11,456 bases of DNA, taken from the NCBI GenBank assembly GCA_039589315.1, contig JBDHHQ010000154.1, forward strand, positions 1 to 11,456, read 5' to 3'. Within the stretch, counting starts at the first letter, position 1. Each line of letters starts with the position of its first letter. A model generated the notes under the pieces. That model did not search any database. It was not told the origin of the DNA and saw only the letters and a program-made list of their open reading frames with translations. Positions 1 through 11,456 of the stretch are shown here, in pieces. Made by a program: the position numbers and the translations under genes. The DNA is from Gemmatimonadota bacterium (GTDB lineage Bacteria > Gemmatimonadota > Gemmatimonadetes > Longimicrobiales > Gaopeijiaceae).

Positions 1-62
1 GAACTGCGTTAGGTCAAGAGTTGCTCCTATCTTGCTTGTGGCGAGTGCACCCTTGATAGGGG

Positions 63-172
63 CGCCGCGCTTCGGAGCGATGAGCCTTGATCGCTTGCTC
101 CGTTCCCACCTACGGTGTTCACGTCGCTGCGCGGTCAGCACCGAGGTCGCGCAGCAGAACTGATCGTTAGGA
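63..172 (+). repeat. attC-like right portion upstream of cassette 1 (repeat copy X; paralogous to 1183-1330)
   Basis: 63-130 matches 1183-1250 at 62 of 68 positions by manual alignment. It ends in GGTCGCGCAGCAGAAC-TGATC-GTTAGGA (L'-spacer-R' layout). Internal stem GCTGCGCG 126-133 pairs with CGCGCAGC 148-155. Confidence 0.7.
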
Positions 173-186
173 GGCCGACGAACATC

Positions 187-1038
187 TTGGAACCTCCCAC
201 CTTCGCGCCCAAGTGGCAGCGGCTGATCACGGAATTGGTAGTGATCGTTGGCGGCATTCTGATCGCGTTCGGCGTGGACGCGGCGTGGGAGCGTCGACAG
301 GCCAGGTTGGAGCTCACGGCTGCCCTGACCGCCGCGCGTTCCGATCTGGCTTCGAGTCAAGCGCAGCTGAGTAGATACTGGCTCCCGTGGGACGAACAGG
401 TGCTCGTTGCCACTATCACGCTTCTCGCATCGGTCACAGACATCGCGATCGATGAGGCTCCGCCACCGGGCCCTGATCGGCTTGAATGGGTCGGCCCGGC
501 GATGGATCAGCTTGCCGCTGGCCTGCCTGAGGTTGTCCTGACCGACGACCGACAAATACTCGTGCCAGACTCGCTGCTAGGTCAGGCGCTGCTGGCTCCT
601 ACTCTAGATCCGTCATTGCCGGCAGTCATGGCGCTACTCGATAGCGGCCTGCTGGGATTGGCTGAGGACGAGGTGTTTGCACGCGCCCTTTCCGAACTCC
701 CCGGACAGTTAGAGGATCTGGCTGACGAGGAGGAGCAGGCCCGGGCGCATGTTTGGTCGGACCTAGTGCCTGTACTTTCGTCAGGGAACAACGTGGCTCA
801 CGTCAATCTGTTCAGTTTCTGGGGTGCTTTGGGCTTCTCTGAACCCGGCGCGAATGGTCCGCTCGAGGAGAGGCATCGGGGTGTCACGGAGATTCGAGTG
901 TCCCAGCGGTTGGTGAACGAACTTGCTACACGAGTGAAGTTGACGGCCGGCGTCGAGTTCACCGCCCGCGAGGTCAACCAGAGGCTCCTCAATCTGGTCC
1001 AGCTACTTGACGAGGAACTGGCCGGGTCGGCCTCCTAA
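187..1038 (+). CDS. DUF6090-like single-pass membrane protein (cassette 1), ~283 aa
   Basis: N-terminal motif W.RLITELVVIVGGILIAFGVD..WERRQ.R.E...L...RSDL resembles DUF6090-type proteins and the protein at 2503. The start is placed at TTG 187 because GTG 115 lies upstream of the cassette boundary at 166/167; AGGAGG at 169-174 is a candidate RBS. The stop TAA lies inside the inverse core site CCTCCTAAC. Confidence 0.75.
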   Translation: MEPPTFAPKWQRLITELVVIVGGILIAFGVDAAWERRQARLELTAALTAARSDLASSQAQLSRYWLPWDEQVLVATITLLASVTDIAIDEAPPPGPDRLEWVGPAMDQLAAGLPEVVLTDDRQILVPDSLLGQALLAPTLDPSLPAVMALLDSGLLGLAEDEVFARALSELPGQLEDLADEEEQARAHVWSDLVPVLSSGNNVAHVNLFSFWGALGFSEPGANGPLEERHRGVTEIRVSQRLVNELATRVKLTAGVEFTAREVNQRLLNLVQLLDEELAGSAS

Positions 1039-1125
1039 CACCCTTAAGAAGGACCGGGTCAAGAGGGTGGAGTGATCCCTGAGCGGCGGGCGCAGGCCGT
1101 CGCTTTTCATTGTTGCTGTTCCGAA
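1035..1125 (+). repeat. ~90-bp non-coding element, copy A (paralogous to 3228-3317)
   Basis: Manual alignment with 3228-3317 gives roughly 80% identity. Shared blocks are GACCGGGTCAAG, GCGCAG.CCGTCGCTT and TTGCTGTTCCGAA. Confidence 0.85.
1082..1107 (+). terminator. Possible weak intrinsic terminator hairpin inside the shared element
   Basis: AGCGGCGG 1082-1089 pairs with CCGTCGCT 1097-1104 (one G-U), followed by only TTT. A similar but weaker hairpin sits at 3275-3298 without a U-tract. Confidence 0.3.
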
Positions 1126-1182
1126 GCAGCTGTGCATCCGCGAGTAGACGCGGTGGACGGGAATCGGCTCAGGAGGCTCCTA

Positions 1183-1330
1183 CGCTGCGCTCCGGAGCGA
1201 TGAGCCTTGATCGCTTGGTCCGTTCACACTTACGGTGTTCACGCCGCTGCGGTGTTCACGTCGCTGCGCGGTGGCCGCTTGGGTCGCGCAGCCGAACCGC
1301 AAAGTCGTTCTATGAGAGCGATCGTTAGAC
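1183..1330 (+). repeat. Repeat copy Y (attC-like right portion) containing a 17-bp tandem duplication
   Basis: Paralogous to 63-170. CGGTGTTCACGCCGCTG 1233-1249 is followed directly by CGGTGTTCACGTCGCTG 1250-1266, and about 21 extra bp precede GATCGTTAG. Confidence 0.85.
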
Positions 1331-1452
1331 GGAGATCTCTCAGAGGATCAGGTTTCTTCTGAGGTTCCACACGAAACGGGTCTTCTGGCTTTCGTGGGCA
1401 CCGCCTCGTACGCTGAAGCTCACCTGAGATTCAGCTGCATCAGAGAGCGGAG

Positions 1453-2349
1453 GTGAGGGTGGAGTCGACTCGGCTAGCGCTCATCGGTGTTCCCTCCAGC
1501 GCAGGCGGACGCCGGACGGGCCAGGAGATGGGGCCGAGTGCGCTCCGGGCCGCCGGCCTCGCGGAGCGACTCCGTGCGAGTGGTCTCGATATTCGGGACC
1601 TCGGCGATCTGCCCGTGGTCCGCTTTCGGCCGAATCCCGAGTACCCGAAGCAGCAGAACGCCGAGCTGGTCCTCGATGTCGCGCGCGAAGTCGCGGAACT
1701 CGTGGGTCAAGCGATGGATGATGGCCGAGTACCGCTAGTCCTTGGGGGGGACTGCAGCATCAGTCTCGGGGTTATTGCCGGCCTCCTCCGGCACCGCCCG
1801 CACCTGGGGCTCCTCTACCTCGACGCAGACCTCGATCTCAACACTCCAGAGACCACCCTATCGGGAATCCTGGACGGAATGGTCCTCGCGCACCTTTTGG
1901 GGCGAGGCGTTCCCGAACTCGCCGCGGCAGGCCCGCGGCGTCCGATGCTCTCCGAATCCGACGTTGTCCTGTTCGGCTACGATCTGGAATCCGGTGCTGT
2001 AGATCCGTACGAGATCGAAGTGCTTGGGGAATCCGAGATGGCTTCTTACTCACTGCCTGCGGTCCGCGCGGACCCTGTGGGCTCTTCCCGCGCCGCGGAC
2101 CTTGAGTTCGGGGGTGACTTCGACGGATTCGTGGTTCACTTCGACGTCGACGTCACGAATCTCCGCTGCGTCGACGTGCCGCATCCGGGCGGACTCGAGG
2201 TTGAATCGGCGTTCCAGGCGTTGGAGGTGCTGGTCCAAGCCCCTAAGTGTGCGGCCGTGGTGGTCACTGAGTTCAACGCGGAACTCGATCCCGACGGGTC
2301 GGAGGCGGAGCGCCTCGTCGAAGGGCTGGTCGGAGCCTTCTCGCCGTGA
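1453..2349 (+). CDS. Arginase/ureohydrolase-family protein with atypical metal-site residues (cassette 2), 298 aa
   Basis: Family motifs are G...GPSALR.AGL, PLVLGGDCS, DADLDLNTPETT.SGILDGM, HFDVDV, PGGL and TEFN..LD. The start could be GTG 1453 or GTG 1459 (GGAGGT at 1449-1454). Confidence 0.9.
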   Translation: MRVESTRLALIGVPSSAGGRRTGQEMGPSALRAAGLAERLRASGLDIRDLGDLPVVRFRPNPEYPKQQNAELVLDVAREVAELVGQAMDDGRVPLVLGGDCSISLGVIAGLLRHRPHLGLLYLDADLDLNTPETTLSGILDGMVLAHLLGRGVPELAAAGPRRPMLSESDVVLFGYDLESGAVDPYEIEVLGESEMASYSLPAVRADPVGSSRAADLEFGGDFDGFVVHFDVDVTNLRCVDVPHPGGLEVESAFQALEVLVQAPKCAAVVVTEFNAELDPDGSEAERLVEGLVGAFSP

Positions 2350-2379
2350 GGGAGGGGGAGGGTCGTCCGGCCGATCTCC

Positions 2380-2482
2380 GTCTAACGTGCGGATGCTGCT
2401 GTCGCGGTCGAGATCCGGGTCCGTGCGCTTTGCGCACGGGTCAGGTATCGTGGTCGCGCAGCAGATCCGCTGACCGTTTGAG
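2380..2482 (+). other. attC recombination site (103 bp) closing the arginase cassette
   Basis: R'' GTCTAAC 2380-2386 is a perfect RYYYAAC. GCGGAT-G-CTGCTG-T-CGCG 2389-2406 pairs with CGCGCAGCAGATCCGC 2455-2470, leaving two unpaired bases (2395, 2402) at the usual extrahelical positions. The apical stem is CCGTGCGC-TTT-GCGCACGG 2421-2439, and R' GTT is at 2476. Confidence 0.88.
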
Positions 2483-2502
2483 AGCGCCGCCACCGGGGGT
2501 CA

Positions 2503-3231
2503 ATGAGTACTGATCGAAGGGCACCGCCTGCGGTACGGGTACTTGTCGAACTGGTCGTGATCGTGATCGGAGTGCTCATCGCTCTGTGGGTCGACAACCT
2601 CAACTCCGAACGTCAGGATCGGCTCCAGGAGCAGGCATACCTTCTCGGTATCGTCGAAGACCTTCAGGGCGACAGCTCTGCCCTGGCTGAGCGGCGAGCC
2701 ACGGCAATCCGCGGCCTTGAGGTTGCGGATCTCCTGCTTGCCCTCCGTGAAGACGCCTCTTCCTCGGCTTCCGCTGATTCACTGGCGGTGTGGTTGTTCC
2801 GGGCGGCCTTCGTGGACAATTTCCAGGTACTCGATCACACGTATCGGGAGATCCTGGGGGCAGGGGGACTGACCCTCATCCGTGACGAGCCGCTGCGGCG
2901 AAGTATTTCGGCGTACTATCGGAGCATCGAGTCGGCGGAGTTCTTCACCGAATACTACAAAGGCGAGGAGTCGGACTACTGGGATCTGCTCGCTGAGAGG
3001 CTGGATCCAGCAGACTTCGCCGCGCTAACCCGGGTCGACGAAGGACCGGGGAGACTCGACGTGGGCCGCCTACTTGGTCAGCTGCGCGGGGACAACGAGA
3101 TCGTCAACGCAATCCTGATGAACCGTCACTGGACTCAGTTGCGCCTCGAGATCACGGATCGGCGCATCGCAGCGAACGCGTCCCTGACCGGCCAGCTGAG
3201 AACACACTTAGCGGACAGGGGCGCACTCTAG
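2503..3231 (+). CDS. DUF6090-like single-pass membrane protein (cassette 3), 242 aa
   Basis: N-terminal ELVVIVIGVLIALWVDNLNSERQDRLQEQAYLLGIVEDL..D and internal TY.EI..AGGL.LIRDE.LR..I..YY motifs are typical of this family. The ATG is 27 nt after the GTT core, and the stop TAG lies within the degenerate inverse core CTCTAGC. Confidence 0.85.
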   Translation: MSTDRRAPPAVRVLVELVVIVIGVLIALWVDNLNSERQDRLQEQAYLLGIVEDLQGDSSALAERRATAIRGLEVADLLLALREDASSSASADSLAVWLFRAAFVDNFQVLDHTYREILGAGGLTLIRDEPLRRSISAYYRSIESAEFFTEYYKGEESDYWDLLAERLDPADFAALTRVDEGPGRLDVGRLLGQLRGDNEIVNAILMNRHWTQLRLEITDRRIAANASLTGQLRTHLADRGAL

Positions 3232-3317
3232 CACCATTATGAAAGACCGGGTCAAGGAGGCGGAATAATGCCTTAGCGGGGGGGCGCAGCCCGTCGCTTA
3301 GTGCTTGCTGTTCCGAA
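3228..3317 (+). repeat. ~90-bp non-coding element, copy B, after the degenerate inverse core of cassette 3
   Basis: Aligns with 1035-1125 in the same register relative to the stop codon (CTAACACC vs CTAGCACC). No convincing matching R' site is seen downstream. Confidence 0.85.
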
Positions 3318-3587
3318 ATGGGTTCCGCGAGGCAGCGCTGGGGAGGCCACTGTCGCAGCGGTGGTGCTCAACACCAGTCCTTCCTCCCGTCTCCCGACGC
3401 CCCTGGCGCGCCCCCGCCGCAGCCTTGCCCTCGGAACCCTCGACTCCACAACTTCGTAACGTCGGCACACGGACGGGCCACCCGCGCCTTCTGGCGGGAC
3501 GACTCACCTACCTGACGTGGCCCAAAGCCCTCCCCCGGTGTGCCGCTGTGTGAAGCTGTCGGTTCCTCTCGCCCGAGAGTCTTCGCC

Positions 3588-5816
3588 ATGGCGTCGTTCT
3601 TCGACCGCCTGAAGGAGAGGAAGCTGTTCCAGTGGGCTCTGGCCTATGCTGCTGGGGCTTGGGCGCTACTCGAAGGCGTGGACCTGGTAGGCGGCCAGTT
3701 CGGATGGCCCACGCGGTTGCTCCAGTCGGTCACCATCCTGGTCGCCGTTGGTTTCTTCGTCGTGCTCGTCCTCGCCTGGTACCACGGCGAGAGGGGACAG
3801 CAACGCGTAAGCGGCCGGGAGCTCCTGATCCTCACCGTGGTCCTCGCCTTTGGAGGTGGGCTGCTGGCCGCCCTGGGCGACCCGGAGGCGGGTTCCGAAC
3901 CGGCGGTCGGCGGAGAAGGTGCCGGAGTCTCCGCACCCGACGCGATCCCCTCGCCCCGTGAGGGGGTCAACCGCGTCTCCCTGATTCTCGCCGACTTCGA
4001 GAACCACACGACCGACCCGCATCTGGGTCTGATGACCACCGAAGCACTGCGCGTCGATCTGGCGGGGTCACGGCGCCTGGCGGTGTTGGAGCGCAGCTCG
4101 CTGGCAGGGGCGCTCCGGCGCATGGAGGTGGATCCATCCACGCCCCTGACGCGGGACGTAGCCGTCGAGATCGCGCAGCGGGAGGGTGTGCCGTTCGTCG
4201 TGGCGGGGCAGGTCGATGCTGTGGGCGGCGCGATCCAGTTTCTGGCGGAGCTGATTCGGCCCGGGGAAGACACGTCGGCCGGTGGCCGGAGAGTCGTCGC
4301 GAGTGACTCTACGGAGATCCTGTCCGCCATCGGCGAGCTCTCCAAGGGCCTTCGTGCAGACGCCGGTGAGTCCGCACGCTCCGTTTCGGAGGCTGGCCCG
4401 TTACCGGAAATCACGACGAGATCCTTCGAGGCGCTTCAGCTCTATGCCCGCGCAGTACGTCTCGGTGATGAGGGCGATTACCCGCGTGCCGTAGAGCTCC
4501 TGGAGCGAGCGGTGGCAGTGGACACCTCTTTCGCCATGGCGTACCTCAGGCTGGGCGCCTACGTCTCCAACATCCGCACTGACCGGACCCTACAGGTAGA
4601 GAGCTTCCGGAGAGCGTACCTCCTCCGCGACCGGCTCACGGAGCCGGAACGACTGCTCGCAGAGGACGGATACCAATGCTGCGTGACAGGGGACGTGAAG
4701 GCCGTGCTGGATGCAACTCGTACGATGGTCGAGCTGTATCCAGATCACAGGACCGGCCTCCAGAATCTGGGATCAGCGTACGGCCGGTTGGGACGCCATG
4801 AGCAGGCGGCGGCGGCGTTCCGGCGCGCCTTCGAGATCGACCCGACGTCATTCTCGACCTTAGGCAACCTCACCACTCACCTCATCGCCCTGGGTGAACT
4901 CGATGTGGCTGATCAGGTCATCGACGAGTTCGATGGGGCGTCTCCTGACCACTGGGGTGTGCTTTGGAGAAGATCTGAGGTCGAGAAGGCGCGAGAAAAC
5001 TATGGGGCTGCGGAGGAACACCTGCTGACACTGGCCAACTTGCCCCCACCCACTGGCTTCGCGACGACGGTCCTGGCAGGCGCCCGCCGCCGCTTGTATC
5101 AGCGCCGGGGGCAGGTGGCCAACGCTCTGGCCCAGGCCGCGGAGCTTCGAAGACTCCGGATGTCCGAGGGCGTCCCCGGAGAGGCCATACTGGAAGCGTC
5201 CCACGAGGCCAACCTGCACTCTCGGTTGCTGGGAGACCAGACGACCGCCGAGGCCGTCCTCGATCAGGCTTTGGCCGATCACCCCCTGGCGGCCATCGGG
5301 CCTCATGATGTTCCCTACCTCGACCTCATCGAGGCATATGCCTGGGCAGGGCGACCGGATAGGAGCCGGGCCCTCCACGCGGAGTACGAACAGCGCGTTC
5401 CATCCGACGAACGCGGCGCTCGAAGGGAGGTTCCGGGCGAGCAGCCGCGTGTCCTTTCGCAGGTAGCCCTCGCTGCAGGAGACAGTGAGGAGTCTATTGG
5501 TCTTCTGCGCGACGCGCGGGATCTCTACTGCCACCCGGCGCGCTGCGCTGTCCTGCTGTCGATCGCGCATGACGCGGCGGCCCGCCCCGACTCGGCGATC
5601 GCCTGGTACGAGAAGTACCTGGACACGTTTCGTCGAGCCGAAATCGACGACGAATACCTTGCCCCGGTTCTGGAGCGCTTGGCCCAGCTCCACGACGAAC
5701 ACGGTGATCCGGCACGAGCGGAGGCGCTATACACCCGGTTCGTCGATCTCTGGGAGGAGGCGGATCCGGAGCTCCAGCCTCGCGTCGAAGCCGCGAAGGC
5801 GAGGCTGGGCCGGTGA
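3588..5816 (+). CDS. Membrane-anchored TPR protein, paralogue 1 (3-TM N-terminal cap + TolB-N/CsgG-like alpha/beta domain + TPRs), 742 aa
   Basis: ATG 3588 (MASFFDRLKERKLFQW) aligns with the starts of the other two paralogues. It has three hydrophobic segments, the ILADFEN...ALRRM...AQREG...GES...PLPEITTRSFEAL module, TPR-like repeats (e.g. NLGSAYGRLGRHEQAAAAFRRAFEIDP), and C-terminal WEEADPELQPRV. Confidence 0.9.
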   Translation: MASFFDRLKERKLFQWALAYAAGAWALLEGVDLVGGQFGWPTRLLQSVTILVAVGFFVVLVLAWYHGERGQQRVSGRELLILTVVLAFGGGLLAALGDPEAGSEPAVGGEGAGVSAPDAIPSPREGVNRVSLILADFENHTTDPHLGLMTTEALRVDLAGSRRLAVLERSSLAGALRRMEVDPSTPLTRDVAVEIAQREGVPFVVAGQVDAVGGAIQFLAELIRPGEDTSAGGRRVVASDSTEILSAIGELSKGLRADAGESARSVSEAGPLPEITTRSFEALQLYARAVRLGDEGDYPRAVELLERAVAVDTSFAMAYLRLGAYVSNIRTDRTLQVESFRRAYLLRDRLTEPERLLAEDGYQCCVTGDVKAVLDATRTMVELYPDHRTGLQNLGSAYGRLGRHEQAAAAFRRAFEIDPTSFSTLGNLTTHLIALGELDVADQVIDEFDGASPDHWGVLWRRSEVEKARENYGAAEEHLLTLANLPPPTGFATTVLAGARRRLYQRRGQVANALAQAAELRRLRMSEGVPGEAILEASHEANLHSRLLGDQTTAEAVLDQALADHPLAAIGPHDVPYLDLIEAYAWAGRPDRSRALHAEYEQRVPSDERGARREVPGEQPRVLSQVALAAGDSEESIGLLRDARDLYCHPARCAVLLSIAHDAAARPDSAIAWYEKYLDTFRRAEIDDEYLAPVLERLAQLHDEHGDPARAEALYTRFVDLWEEADPELQPRVEAAKARLGR

Positions 5817-7834
5817 AGGCGGCGCTCTGGGACCGGCTCAGGCAAAGGAAGCTCTTCCAGTGGGCCCTAGCCTACGCCGCCGGCGCGTGGGTGATCTTCG
5901 AGGCTAGCGATGCGGTGGGTGGCCGCTGGGAACTCCCCAACGTCCTCTTCCAAGGCCTCTCGGTCGTCTTGATTGCCGGCTTCTTCGTCACGCTGGTTCT
6001 CGCTTGGTACCACGGGGAGAAGGGGCGGCAGCGCGTGAGCGGGCCCGAACTTCTGATGTTGACGGCGCTCTTCATCATCGCTGGCGTGGCTCTGTCGGCG
6101 GTGGGACCCTCCCCGGATCCGACGGGCGGGGCGTCCACCCCCTCAGCTTCCACTTCGGATGACGACCGGCCTTCTATCGCAGTGATGCCGTTCTCCAGCA
6201 CCAGCACTGATGCCGAGAGTCGCATGTTTGCCGACGGCGTCCACGACGACCTGCTGACACAACTGAGCAAGGTGAAGAGTCTTCGGGTGATCTCCCGCAC
6301 GTCGGTCGAACGCTTCCGCGAGACCGAACTTGGCGTACCTGAGATCGCGAACGTGCTCGGTGTCGATGCGGTGATGGAAGGGAGCGTTCAAAGAGTCGGG
6401 GGGCAGATCAGGGTGAACGCCCAGTTGATCGACGGAGTTACCGACGGGCACCTGTGGGCGGAGACGTACGATCGGGTCTTCACCGTAGAACAACTCCTCG
6501 ACCTTCAGGCCGAGATCGCTCGCAACGTGAGCATCGCGCTTCGCACCACCCTCAGCCCAGAGGACGAAGCCGAGATTCGGCTCGCGGGCACGGACAACCC
6601 GGAAGCCTATGCGGCCTACTTGGAGGGACTCGCGCTTCTTGCTCGGGGCTCCACGCCATACATCGGCGACGTGTCCGACGCGGCGTATGGCGCGGTGGAG
6701 GCGTTTCAAGAAGCAGTGCGGTTGGACCCGGAGTTTGCGCTGGCGCACGCACGGCTCTCTAGGGCGCATCGTGCCGTCGCTTTCACCGGCGCTGACCAAA
6801 GCGACGAGCGGTTCGACCTCATCAGGCAATCCGCCCAGACCGCGCTCGACCTGGACCCGGATCTGCCCGAAGCTATGATAGCGATGGGGAGCTACCACTA
6901 TCGTCTGGGTCGAGGGGGAGACTTCGATCTGGCTCTCCAGTTCATGCAGGCGGCACACGAGCGCCAGCCGAACAGATTTTTCTCGAGCGTGGCCAGCGTG
7001 CAAAGGCGGCGTGGCGAGTGGGAGCAAGCTGCAGAGTACCAATCGAGGGCCTCCGACCAAAACCCTCTCAGCTTCAATTCCGCACGCGAGTCTGCGTTGA
7101 ATTACCTGCGCATGAGGGAGTACGAGCGGTCCGAGAGATACCTCGATCGGTCGGACGCCATCAGGCCCACCCCGATCACAAACGCCCGAAGAGCTCTGCT
7201 GTTCCTGATGCGCGACGGCGACGTGGACTCGGCGATCAAGGTGTTGTATGCGATAGGCGACGGCGACCAAGGCCTCTGGCCGAGTATCGCTGCGTGGGCG
7301 GGTGCAAACCTGCCCAGGCGGATCGCGGCACGCGTCTTTTGTTCTCGTGAAATCTGCGCCGAGGCCACCAACGGGCCTCGGCCGCAGACCTGGGTAGGCT
7401 ATCGATCAAGAGCCGACCTTTTCGGCCTACTGGGCGACCGCGAGCGAGAGATGGCTTACAACGATTCGGCAGCAGTACTTCTCGAGCGGGATCTCGTGGA
7501 GCACCCTTGGGACTCACTCAGCATTCTGTCCGCCCTCTGCCTTTCCTATGCGGGTCTGGATCGCGCGGATCTCGTAAGACAGAAGGGCGAGGAATTGCAG
7601 CGGTTAGAGCCTCATAAGAAGGACGCACTCTGGGGAACCGATTACCTGAGGAACTTAGCTGAGGCCTACGTGCCTATCGGCGACCACGACTCGGCGATCG
7701 ATCAACTTGAGATCGTTCTGTCGGTCCCCTCAGTCATGTCTGCCAATTTGCTTGAGGTCGATCCTGTTTGGGACCCCCTCCGCGACCACCCCCGCTTCCA
7801 GGCGCTGCTCGAGAAGTACGGAAGCGAGCCCTGA
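5813..7834 (+). CDS. Membrane-anchored TPR protein, paralogue 2 (3-TM cap + TolB-N-like domain + TPRs), 673 aa
   Basis: The GTG start overlaps the previous stop (GTGA 5813-5816). Motifs include SIAVMPF, DGVHDDLLTQLSK...RVISRTSV, EGSVQR.G.QIRVNAQLID...HLWAETYDR, T.NPEAY..YL.G, and C-terminal DPVWDPLRDHPRFQALL. Confidence 0.92.
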   Translation: MKAALWDRLRQRKLFQWALAYAAGAWVIFEASDAVGGRWELPNVLFQGLSVVLIAGFFVTLVLAWYHGEKGRQRVSGPELLMLTALFIIAGVALSAVGPSPDPTGGASTPSASTSDDDRPSIAVMPFSSTSTDAESRMFADGVHDDLLTQLSKVKSLRVISRTSVERFRETELGVPEIANVLGVDAVMEGSVQRVGGQIRVNAQLIDGVTDGHLWAETYDRVFTVEQLLDLQAEIARNVSIALRTTLSPEDEAEIRLAGTDNPEAYAAYLEGLALLARGSTPYIGDVSDAAYGAVEAFQEAVRLDPEFALAHARLSRAHRAVAFTGADQSDERFDLIRQSAQTALDLDPDLPEAMIAMGSYHYRLGRGGDFDLALQFMQAAHERQPNRFFSSVASVQRRRGEWEQAAEYQSRASDQNPLSFNSARESALNYLRMREYERSERYLDRSDAIRPTPITNARRALLFLMRDGDVDSAIKVLYAIGDGDQGLWPSIAAWAGANLPRRIAARVFCSREICAEATNGPRPQTWVGYRSRADLFGLLGDREREMAYNDSAAVLLERDLVEHPWDSLSILSALCLSYAGLDRADLVRQKGEELQRLEPHKKDALWGTDYLRNLAEAYVPIGDHDSAIDQLEIVLSVPSVMSANLLEVDPVWDPLRDHPRFQALLEKYGSEP

Positions 7835-7837
7835 CCG

Positions 7838-9675
7838 ATGTCCCTCCTGACCCGCCTCAAGGAGCGCAAGCTGGTCCAATGGGCCGTGGCCTATCTGGCG
7901 GGTGCATGGGTCCTGCTACAGGTGATGGATGTGGTCGCGGAGCCGTGGGGCCTGTCCTCGTTCCTCCTGCGGTCGATCCAGGTGACGCTGGTTGCGGGGC
8001 TGTTCGTCACGCTCGTGCTCGCGTGGTACCACGGAGAGCAAGGTCGGCAACGGGTCAGCGGGATGGAGTTACTGATCCTCGCAGCCGTGCTGTTCACCGG
8101 GGGGACGCTACTGGCCCTGATCCAGCCTTCCGAAGACGATCAGGCCTCGCTCGACCCCGACGTGCTCGAACCCCCGCTTGGGCTGGACGACGACCGCCCC
8201 TCGGTGGCCGCTCTCCCCTTCGCGAACCGGAGCGGAGTCGAGGACGACCGCTACTTCACCGATGGCCTGCACGACGAGATCATCACCCGCCTCTCGACCG
8301 TGTCGGCCATGCGGGTCATCGCCCGCACCTCGGTGGAGGAATACCGGGAGACGCCGAAGAGCGTTCGCGTCATCGGCGAAGAGCTTGGAGTCCGCTACCT
8401 CCTTGCGGGCGGCGTCCGGCCATCACGGACTCCGTCGCATCGTACCTCCGAGTCGTCATTGAGGGCGCCGAGATCGCCCGCATAGCCCAACGCTCAACCG
8501 ACAACGCCGAGGCGTATGCACTGTACCTGGAGTCGCTGACAGCAGCCCCGTCATTGATGCCTGAGCTACTGTCTGAGGCTCGACTCCCATTCGTCGAAGA
8601 AGCGGTCCGCCTTGACCCGGAGTTCGCACTCGCTTGGACGCGACAGGCGCTGCTCCACGCACGCCTGGATCAGCTAGGCAGGGAGGACGCGAATCATGCC
8701 GGGCTTGCCCGGGCTGCCCTGGAGCAGGCGTTCCGGTTGGCCCCGGACCTACCGGAGGCACACTATGCCCATGCGATGGTCCTGTACCGCGTGGAGCGGG
8801 AGTACCAGAGGGCACTAACCGCTCTGGACCAAGCAGAAGCGGGGCGGATGCGGGACCTGGACATTTCGAGGTCAATCATTGAGCGACGGGCGGGGCGATG
8901 GGATGAAGCCCTGCTGTCCGGCCTTCGGGCACTTAAGACATATCCGCGTTCAAGGTCAGCTCACTTGGAGGTGGCTCGGACTCTACACCTTTCGCGTCGC
9001 TACGACGAGGCTGAGCCCTTCTACGATGCAGCTATGGAGCTAGAGCCGACCCACGTCCGCACACGAAGGAGCCGGGCGGAGATGTTGTGGCACCGGGACG
9101 GTGACATAGAAGAATATGTGGGACTCGTCGAGGAGCGCCGCTACAGGGGACCTTACATGCGGCGTGATTGGACGGCGTCCATCCTAAGACTCAGGGAACT
9201 GCCGGATGCGGTGCGCCTGAACGATCTTCGGGCTGAGTCCAGGGACTTCTACGTTGGCATGGCCCAACGTGGCTCGGGGGATGAAGCTGCCGCAGCCGAG
9301 GCGTTCCAGAACGCCGTTGACACCATGGAAGCCCGTGTCGCGAACGACCCAGACGACTTTCGCCTCGTGGAGGCTCTCGGACTCGCCTACGCGGGAACGG
9401 GGCAGGGCGACGAAGCTCTACAGGCTGGGCGTCGGGGTCTCGAACTCATGCCCCCGAAGAAGGACGCGATCTTCGGACCTTGGGCGTACACCAGGTTGGC
9501 CCAGATCCACGCCGTCCTAGGGCAGGCCGACTCGGCGGTGGCCTACCTCGAGCGAACGTTCGCCATCCCGGGCGACCTCTCTGCCTGGGACGTGAAGATG
9601 GATCCCATCTACGACAGCATCCGGGACCATCCCGGATACCATGCGCTGATGGAGCGATTCGGGCTGGAGCCGTGA
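7838..9675 (+). pseudogene. Membrane-anchored TPR protein, paralogue 3, disrupted by an internal deletion plus frameshift at ~8417-8420
   Basis: The frame from ATG 7838 matches paralogue 2 up to YLLAGGVR (8419). Homology continues in the -1 frame as AITDSVASYLR...TDNAEAYALYL through DPIYDSIRDHPGYHALM to the stop at 9675. About 40 residues of paralogue 2 (RVGGQIRVNAQLID...DLQA) have no counterpart. A sequencing or assembly artefact cannot be excluded. Confidence 0.82.
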
Positions 9676-10447: not shown

Positions 10448-10693
10448 GGCAAACCCGTTCGGATCGGCCTCGGACGGATGGCTCCCCCCTTCCCGACACG
10501 TGCATCTGGCCTCGTCACTGCCAGGTCCCCAAGATCAAAGGACCTGCTGACACCTGCCCGGAGACGCGCCTGTGACCCGCCTATCCCTGCCCCAGCTCGA
10601 ACGCCATCTCTTCGCAGCCGCCGACATCCTCCGGGGCGAGATAGACGCTTCGGAGCCTAGGGACACCCTTTACAACCTCCACCAACCGCTACC

Positions 10694-11456
10694 ATGGCCC
10701 GCCTGACCCTTGCCGAACTGGAGCGGCACCTGTGGGGTGCCGCCGACCTACTCCGGGGCTCGATCGACTCCGGTGACTTCAAGCACTACATCTTCGGCCT
10801 GCTGTTCTACAAGCGGCTGTGCGACGTGTGGGAGGAGGAGTACGAGGAGCGGCTGGCGGAGTACGGGGACCACGATCTGGCAATCGATCCCGAGGAGCAC
10901 CGCTTTCACATCCCAGAAGGCTGCTTCTGGCAGGACGTGCGGAAGGTGTCGGTGGACATCGGTACGGTCCTCAACGTGTCGTTCCGCGCCATCGAGGACG
11001 CGAACCCGAGGCTCAAGGGCGTCTTCCAGGACGTGGACTTCGCGAACAAGGAGCGGTTCCCCGACCACCTGCTCGACAGCCTGCTCCAGCACTTCGAGAT
11101 CCACCGGATGCGGAAGTCGGACGTGTCCTCGAACGTGCTCGGTGACGCCTACGAGTACCTGATCGCCAAGTTCGCCGACGACGCGGGTAAGAAAGGCGGT
11201 GAGTTCTACACGCCCAAGCAGGTCGTGAAGCTCATGGTTGAGATCCTGCAGCCTGAGGAGGGTCAGACCGTCTATGATCCCGCCTGCGGCTCAGGCGGCA
11301 TGCTGCTCGAAGCCACCCACTTCATGGAGCGGAACGAGCTCAACCCGAAGGCGCTCACCCTCTACGGCCAGGAGAAGAACCTCCACACCTGGGCCATCTG
11401 CAAGATGTCGCTGTTCCTGCACGACATCGATGACGCCTTCATCGAGCGCGGGGACA
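10694..11456 (+). CDS. hsdM: Type I restriction-modification system methyltransferase subunit M, 5' part (runs off the window)
   Basis: Manual translation from ATG 10694 gives MARLTLAELERHLWGAADLLRGSIDSGDFKHYIFGLLFYKRLCD...LGDAYEYLIAKFADDAGKKGGEFYTPKQVV...YDPACGSGGML...LYGQEKN. These are the HsdM N-terminal domain, the GEFYTP motif and SAM-binding motif I. No stop occurs before the window end. Confidence 0.97.
   Translation, partial: MARLTLAELERHLWGAADLLRGSIDSGDFKHYIFGLLFYKRLCDVWEEEYEERLAEYGDHDLAIDPEEHRFHIPEGCFWQDVRKVSVDIGTVLNVSFRAIEDANPRLKGVFQDVDFANKERFPDHLLDSLLQHFEIHRMRKSDVSSNVLGDAYEYLIAKFADDAGKKGGEFYTPKQVVKLMVEILQPEEGQTVYDPACGSGGMLLEATHFMERNELNPKALTLYGQEKNLHTWAICKMSLFLHDIDDAFIERGD

Follow-up and report, generated by a model that had tools for sequence, protein, structure and literature searches.

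Since 2008-2009, insertion sequences (IS) targeting the attC sites of integrons have been on record from clinical integrons and from those of Pseudomonas. In the IS1111 family, terminal extensions of 7 bp on the left and 3 bp on the right are reported. According to PMC3001079, IS1111-attC elements insert close to the attC 5' end and lie antisense to the cassettes, and group IIC-attC introns target the attC bottom strand near its 5' end, opposite to cassette transcription, where they can block read-through. PMC11187229 describes IS1111-family members as having subterminal repeats and, downstream, a seekRNA encoded in a non-coding region. MITEPpu9 (ssr9) modules, as presented in PMC12288879, are flanked by IS-end-like boxes, form their own minicircles and are mobilised by ISPpu9. 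Here we analysed 11,456 bp of Gemmatimonadota DNA, the entire contig C154 of a draft genome of 6.67 Mb in 288 contigs (hereafter the window), in which a conserved non-coding element stands directly behind the inverse core site (R'') of two integron cassettes. We conclude that this element is very probably the right-end stub of an IS110/IS1111-type insertion sequence, which we call IS-B, inserted in attC directly behind the inverse core and antisense to the cassettes, and that later deletions likely stripped IS-B of its transposase gene and left end and of most of its non-coding region.

We found the parent of the element in related Gemmatimonadota genomes. In several of them, the 24-mer that opens the element and is its most conserved part (ACCATTAAGAAGGACCGGGTCAAG) heads a longer conserved stretch that runs ~260 nt into a gene on the opposite strand, and this reverse-strand gene encodes a 338-aa IS110-family (DEDD) transposase. 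The transposase of relative G138 (L094:6583-7596, minus strand) scored 63.2 bits with PF01548 and 66 bits with PF02371, both above the cut-offs, and 199.7 bits with NF033542 (cut-off 140). In G138:C12, the IS-B unit spans 1,343 bp on the strand opposite to the cassettes: the left end with the leader takes up 63 nt, the transposase gene follows, and the 263 nt downstream of it are non-coding and terminate in the reverse complement of the 24-mer. A non-coding region that is longer downstream of the transposase gene (263 vs 63 nt in G138) is a trait of the IS1111 family, as are subterminal inverted repeats of 11-13 bp. The 24-mer comprises a 6-nt terminal extension, an 11-bp subterminal inverted repeat (AAGAAGGACCG) and 7 more bases, and the left end of IS-B has an inverted copy of AAGAAGGACCG that matches at 11/11 positions in relative G085 and at 9/11 in the G138 copies. 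Two other readings of the full-length copies were excluded: the conserved reverse-strand gene is not a toxin gene in a cassette, as its translation is a transposase, and the unit is not a giant attC or an ORF-less cassette bounded by TCTAAC...GTTAGAC (ORF, open reading frame), as 'GTTAGAC' contains the transposase stop codon.

The insertion point of IS-B is that of an attC-targeting element. IS-B is bordered on one side by R'' (CTAAC) and on the other by the AAGCG spacer and L'' of a normal attC, with its transposase gene antisense to the cassettes. Its left flank reads ...ATCTAAC and its right flank (TCA)AGCAATTGCTGC...GCAGCAGAATTGCAAATC-GTTATAC, which are the two parts of an ordinary attC, and the L'-R' half of attC lies downstream in 3/4 copies with a readable left end. 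The layout is that of an ISPa25 copy that lies antisense behind blaOXA-17, and the right end of an ISKpn4 copy in a class 1 integron abuts GTTAGAT behind the qacL cassette. IS-B resembles the IS1111-attC group (ISPa21, ISPst6, ISKpn4, ISPa25) in its size (~1.3 kb), its DEDD transposase with PF01548 and PF02371, its subterminal inverted repeats, its long non-coding region downstream of the transposase gene, and its antisense position near the attC 5' end with the right end beside the inverse-core complement (GTTAG). In contrast to that group, IS-B lies in Gemmatimonadota chromosomal arrays, and the window has a right-end stub only.

Side observations were made on two pairs of IS-B loci. Two copies in G138 (L081 and L092) have an identical left flank over 25 nt and different attC right halves, which suggests recombination between IS copies that reshuffles cassette neighbours. 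In G222:C1 (L082 and L095), an element that bears an IS256-like transposase is inserted in IS-B near the 3' end of the transposase gene.

The features of the window that bear on the element are as follows.

1031..1039, plus strand: inverse core R'' of cassette 1, CCTCCTAAC, with the ORF stop codon TAA inside; with GG at 1029-1030, an 11-nt perfect complement of the cassette start.
1040..1146, minus strand (the IS sense): stub e1, probably the last ~107 nt of IS-B, i.e. the right end and the outer 3' non-coding region, from nhmmer and identity to relative G222.
1046..1056, no strand: right subterminal inverted repeat AAGAAGGACCG, of which the left end of full copies has an inverted copy.
1081..1105, plus strand: GC-rich hairpin H1 with a T-run, intrinsic-terminator-like on the cassette-sense strand, from a terminator scan.
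1147..1328, plus strand: remainder of the attC of cassette 1 (attC1), a canonical ~185-nt attC repeat minus its L'' arm (AAGCGATTGCTGC), 91% identical to 63-131.
3226..3232, plus strand: R''-like site of cassette 3, CTCTAGC, with the stop codon TAG inside; GCGCACTCTAGC pairs at 10/12 positions with the cassette start.
3233..3388, minus strand: stub e2, probably the last ~155 nt of IS-B, from nhmmer, followed by a ~200-nt spacer and a TPR gene at 3588.

The two window copies match each other and the end of IS-B. An earlier note on this DNA had described 1035-1125 and 3228-3317 as ~80% identical and in the same register behind the inverse core; our blastn search of the window against the 6.67-Mb genome returned the pair at 79.6% identity over 93 nt (E 5e-14), and a repeat search of the window with gapless extension gave 79% over 56 nt (1035-1090 vs 3228-3283) and 90% over 21 nt (1085-1105 vs 3279-3299). 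Both e1 and e2 begin in the same register, after CCTCCTAAC (1031-1039) and after CTCTAGC (3226-3232), with an ORF stop inside each. The shared stretch exceeds the ~90 bp reported before: a profile of the relatives' full-length copies (nhmmer) matched e1 at 1033-1140 (profile positions 2-103, E 9e-17) and e2 at 3227-3388 (positions 3-164, E 4e-13). Compared with the full copy in G222, e1 was 84% identical over 76 nt to the end of that copy, and e2 was 78% identical over 67 nt. A third copy in the same genome, e3 (C214:3738-3854, minus strand), lies behind an alpha/beta-hydrolase gene, is 85% identical to e1, and covers profile positions 2-150 with 73% identity over 150 nt to the G222 full copy. 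Two further short 5' pieces of the element lie on C39. The stub on C214 has the ~200-nt downstream spacer and the TPR gene start in common with e2 (C214:3693-3849, minus strand), although the two follow different cassettes. The terminal extension of e1 is 1040-1045, and canonical attC sequence restarts at 1147, right after e1.

The rest of the parent was not found in this assembly. No transposase ORF stands beside e1 or e2 in the ORF list of the window, and tblastn gave no close match to the IS-B transposase in the assembly (best hit, 30.5% over 118 aa on C75). The left-end motif had 0 matches in the window and 0 in the draft assembly, which is 95% complete and from whose searches unassembled repeats could escape. 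The stub would be immobile, because it has neither a left end nor a transposase gene. The inner break points of the element vary among copies (24, ~48, ~107 and ~160 nt), and the junctions at 1146/1147 and in locus L042 share just 1-3 nt.

These results bear on a further explanation, that the element is a non-autonomous module akin to a miniature inverted-repeat transposable element (MITE), which an IS110-family transposase would still move in trans, in the way that ISPpu9 moves MITEPpu9 (ssr9). The precedent exists, since ssr9 forms its own minicircles (PMC12288879), and the element lies behind at least 5 different cassettes in this genome. Like the stubs, MITEPpu9 in that account is free of a transposase gene, holds sequence of the non-coding RNA region and is scattered at the target specific to its IS; unlike the stubs, which have one end and variable inner break points, it keeps both end boxes and forms minicircles. 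With the left-end motif at 0 in both the window and the assembly, with copies that end at different internal points, and with a 30%-identical, internally deleted relic on C75 as the one related transposase of the assembly, such a module is very unlikely. Hence, the earlier proposal of an attC-targeting element or its scar holds for the scar, and its pointer to IS1111-attC elements was right; the part that made the element itself a non-autonomous one falls with the absent left end.

The relic on C75 (11500-12265) belongs to a third IS110-type element; an internal deletion in its transposase gene leaves 30 N-terminal aa fused to ~125 aa of the C-terminus. It has a ~300-nt non-coding tail ending in CTTGACGGGGTCCGCTTTATAGGT, which resembles the IS-B right end.

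We compared the attC site that e1 occupies with the other attC sites of the genome. The inverse core at 1031-1039 is read as a true one because GGCCTCCTAAC (1029-1039) complements GTTAGGAGGCC, at the start of the same cassette (166-176), at all 11 positions. Complementarity of this kind also marks the next cassette, where 1323-1337 matches 2373-2387 perfectly over 15 nt, and in cassette 3 GCGCACTCTAGC pairs with GTTTGAGAGCGC (2476-2487) at 10/12 positions, one of them G.T. A complete ~185-nt attC of this genome reads R''(xxTAAC)-AAGCGATTGCTGCAGACGCGG ... GGTCGCGCAGCAGAATCGCAAGTCC-GTTRRRY, and in minimum-energy DNA folds it closes at both R''/R' and L''/L'. The stretch 1183-1328 is one of 27 genome matches to this attC repeat. 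In metagenome contigs from four public runs, the left arm CTAAC-AAGCGATTGCTGCAG precedes the point matching window 1146-1149 in other copies; in attC1, exactly the position of the L'' arm is occupied by the element. As e1 joins attC downstream of L'', the deletion of the IS body therefore probably took L'' as well.

The folds corroborated the earlier observation that the element does not pair with the attC right arm: attC1 did not close, and the element stayed unpaired with that arm. In comparison, attC2 (2381-2483), a textbook ~105-nt attC behind an arginase-family cassette, folded closed. No partner arm that might have been missed was found.

The same comparison argues against a new long or branched attC class, in which the element would be a native extra arm between R'' and L''. 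The element does start at the R'' of a real cassette, always right behind the inverse core; the right part of attC1 is the canonical repeat of the genome; and an attC right half ending GTTRRRY follows the element in three places (attC1, L020 and L042). Yet L'' is replaced, not supplemented, and the element supplies no L'' arm and leaves the right arm unpaired. It is homologous to, and collinear with, a transposase-bearing IS across the terminal inverted repeat and the non-coding region, and the 24-mer is near-invariant over 12 genera, unlike attC arms. We therefore set aside the new attC class suggested earlier as highly improbable, a shade more so than a module mobilised in trans.

Several details of attC sites were noted in passing. 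The DNA fold of attC2 has a long central stem with single unpaired bases on one strand only, and its R'' side is a 15-nt perfect complement of its own cassette start. Within attC1, 1235-1268 is a 17-nt tandem duplication (GGTGTTCACGCCGCTGC / GGTGTTCACGTCGCTGC), which allows the L' arm to pair with an internal hairpin instead, and 1306-1322 adds 17 nt (GTTCTATGAGAGCGATC) between two GTT cores at the end of the site. One metagenome contig is without exactly those 17 nt, which an integrase acting at a secondary site may have left as a footprint. At C214:70-511, a canonical attC repeat is split after ...CACACCTACG and resumes at GGTGTTCACG; the insert is ~440 bp long and has its own ribosome-binding site and ORF.

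The element recurs across genera of the family. The 24-mer, with up to 3 mismatches, occurs at 31 places in 19/301 genomes of the family (12/81 genera), and a reversed-pattern control gave 0 matches in the same 301 genomes. Among 29 distinct copies, the three bases right ahead of the 24-mer are AAC, GAC, CAC or AGC in 25 and ACC, TAC, TAA or AAG in the other 4. An open frame of at least 60 codons ends within 80 nt upstream in 22/29 copies. The upstream genes that have a Pfam name are mutually unrelated (PGA_cap, methyltransferase, GSDH, amidohydrolase and alpha/beta hydrolase), and the element is thus not the 3' untranslated region of one kind of gene, which had been named as a possible refutation. 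In the window, the upstream ORF proteins of e1 and e2 do resemble each other at the N-terminus alone, as noted before, and this match is weak (15/41 residues, E 0.012). The 'DUF6090-like' label once given to them did not hold up: ORF 2503-3228 scored 13.3 bits with the DUF6090 model (cut-off 23.5), and ORF 187-1035 had no match.

In a search of one genome per prokaryote species, a degenerate form of the 24-mer returned 24 loci, 17 of them in Gemmatimonadota/Gemmatimonadetes/Longimicrobiales records. The 7 others (3 Streptomyces, 2 Nannocystaceae, 1 Oscillospiraceae and 1 Youngiibacter) were rejected as chance matches to the degenerate pattern; they lie inside coding sequence, without CTAAC ahead, and show no further similarity.

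A transposase gene of IS110/IS1111 type, as the earlier note had proposed to look for, adjoins copies in relatives, and no reverse transcriptase gene was found. This matters for the least likely of the explanations that we weighed, in which a group IIC-attC intron or another retroelement left the element behind as a 5'-truncated fragment. The position and orientation logic would be the same, on the bottom strand near the attC 5' end (PMC3001079), and the element has one fixed and one variably truncated end. In contrast to such introns, no intron RNA domains were found, and where a reverse transcriptase gene would be expected, full copies adjoin the gene of a DEDD transposase. Rfam gave no match to an intron or any other family on either strand of window 1-3700 and five full-length loci at E up to 5-10, so we hold an intron origin to be extremely improbable.

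Three more candidates were rejected. A known RNA family was excluded by the lack of a relevant Rfam match in those sequences, and neither a gene nor an RNA in support of an IS200/IS605-type or retroelement origin was found. A small conserved ORF in the +1 frame (...TLKKDRVK..E*) was excluded by a 1-nt indel, differing stops, and substitutions that are not concentrated at third codon positions.

The element keeps a secondary structure of its own. Both the near-palindrome and the GC-rich hairpin seen before are present, at 1052-1060 (GACCGGGTC) and 1081-1105 (H1), respectively. In 12 aligned copies, H1 has 10 pairs, of which 4 show compensatory changes, and one pair is G.U on the cassette-sense strand in 9/12 copies and would be A.C on the transposase-sense strand. 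H1 folds at -23.2 kcal/mol on the top strand vs -13.1 kcal/mol on the bottom strand, and in copies with an intact hairpin the top-strand folds are ~8-10 kcal/mol more stable than the bottom-strand folds. A T-run follows H1 in e1 and e3. By its structure, H1 with its T-run fits an insulating terminator that would halt read-through from the cassette gene.

Because its L'' arm is gone, attC1 is predicted to be dead: it would no longer fold as a substrate for recombination, and cassettes 1 and 2 would thereby be welded together. With L'' gone from attC1, the earlier note's idea of a device that holds cassettes fast is a plausible consequence; a selected function is unsupported.

A stronger form holds that the stubs were domesticated, i.e. 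selected as a strand-specific terminator or insulator and as an attC lock that fixes cassettes or the adjacent TPR genes. The kept pairing of H1 with its compensatory changes and its G.U pair on the cassette-sense strand, the T-run in e1 and e3, the loss of L'' from attC1 and the abundance of right-end-only stubs (~24/29 copies) speak for it. However, the compensatory changes may all predate the truncations, as the hairpin is present in intact copies too; the pattern used in the search biases the number of stubs; and the break points differ by copy, as random decay predicts. We regard domestication as unlikely. Equally doubtful is the wider proposal that IS-B is a second, independently evolved RNA-guided IS110-type lineage homing to attC and that its stubs were domesticated as terminators and attC locks freezing chosen cassettes in the chromosomal integrons of Gemmatimonadota.

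We found a second attC-targeting IS, which we call IS-A, intact in relatives. It encodes a 340-aa transposase, has the ends TGATGGGATGGACTCC...GGAGTCCAGATA, and inserts after AAGCG, ~5 nt further in than IS-B, which inserts directly after R''. The IS-A transposase is 48% identical to those of ISKpn4 and ISPa25, and the IS-B and IS-A transposases share 25% identity over 248 aa. Among plasmid genes, the 15 best matches listed for IS-B belong to the IS110 family and are 30-34% identical; some are named as ISGsu4-type, and none of the 15 is named ISKpn4 or ISPa25. In a quick transposase tree of 18 rows (a small sample, midpoint-rooted and without bootstrap), a branch with a Shimodaira-Hasegawa-like approximate likelihood ratio test (SH-aLRT) value of 100, the deepest of the tree, parts IS-B and the ISGsu4-type genes from IS-A, ISKpn4 and ISPa25. 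By these comparisons, IS-B falls outside the monophyletic ISPa21/ISPst6/ISKpn4 transposase clade. Judged by sequence, then, IS-B works like an IS1111-attC element but stands apart from that group in phylogeny, and its distance from IS-A, ISKpn4 and ISPa25 suggests a separate origin of attC targeting.

IS-A was excluded as the parent of the element: none of 29 other IS-A loci carries the element, and the IS-A non-coding region gave no nhmmer match to it. In relative G168, a truncated IS-A-like transposase gene adjoins a stub; the best reading is that this attC took up a second insertion and then underwent a deletion. Intact ISKpn4/ISPa25-like IS-A copies lie in Gemmatimonadota attC sites at loci L051, L052, L054-L057 and L059 of relatives. 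Within the strongly conserved 3' non-coding region of IS-A, the attC target sequence is present as a copy, CTCAAGCGATTGG.

Several results weigh against reading the element as an IS-B stub. No intact IS-B was found in this genome, and parentage rests on 73-84% identity to copies of other genera. Intact transposase frames are uncommon in relatives too, with a 338-aa frame in 2/11 loci examined; such frames are present in G138:C12 and G295:C3. The terminal extensions of IS-B are 7-10 nt on the left and apparently 6 nt on the right (boundaries +/- ~3 nt from flanks alone), vs the 3 nt reported for the right end in the IS1111 family. Putative guide segments amount to short matches: the non-coding region of L094 (G138:C12) contains AATGGTGTTTGAT, a near-copy of the right-end/target junction AATGGT|GTTAGAT, and CGCT|TGATTGGGATG lies just past the transposase stop in L094 and resembles the IS-A left-end junction; these suggestive matches may be guide segments. 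H1 is better paired antisense to the transposase gene and so is not obviously part of a guide RNA from the sense strand. Right-end-only stubs exceed copies with the whole non-coding region in number, with ~24/29 distinct 24-mer copies without inner motifs in a search that used the right end, which biases this count. No empty site, excision joint or usable RNA cover was found in the metagenome data of the four runs, where contig breaks fall at the start of the repeat.

The IS-B origin of the stubs nevertheless accounts for the arrangement in the window as follows. IS-B would move like other IS1111-family members, via a circular intermediate, and its DEDD recombinase would be led to attC by a guide RNA (seek or bridge RNA) made from the non-coding stretch downstream. 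In the lineage of the window, deletions with 1-3 nt of junction microhomology would then have removed all but the last 105-160 nt, and in cassette 1 the same deletion would have removed the L'' arm.

Other parts of the genome are described here for context. An integron integrase gene lies elsewhere in the assembly, on C97 (TIGR02249, 342.6 bits; cut-off 265). Behind e2, the window has three tandem paralogous TPR genes (3588-9675) with a common conserved N-terminal membrane segment, the third of which looks frameshifted (ORFs 7838-8485 and 7768-9675 in different frames). Further on, 10573-10646 and 10695-10768 form a direct repeat of 74 nt (72% identical), and the second copy spans the first codons of the 3'-open ORF 10694-11455. 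From its translation, without a family search, we take this ORF to be a type I restriction-modification methylase (hsdM-like), so the upstream repeat copy would be a duplicated 5' fragment.

We found no description of this element in a literature search, which was not exhaustive, on IS1111-attC elements, seekRNA, Gemmatimonadota integrons and attC-IS110 remnants. The kind of element is already established; what is added is that Gemmatimonadota chromosomal integron arrays carry two attC-targeting IS lineages. Most traces of IS-B are right-end stubs, which could pass for a non-coding RNA or a new class of attC and which disrupt attC detection and assemblies. With its compact 263-nt non-coding region, IS-B may be of interest for collections of programmable bridge/seek-RNA recombinases. 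The stub that probably removed L'' offers a natural test case for whether IS damage freezes cassettes, and the distance of IS-B from the lineage related to ISKpn4 and ISPa25 suggests that attC targeting arose a second time among RNA-guided IS110-type recombinases.

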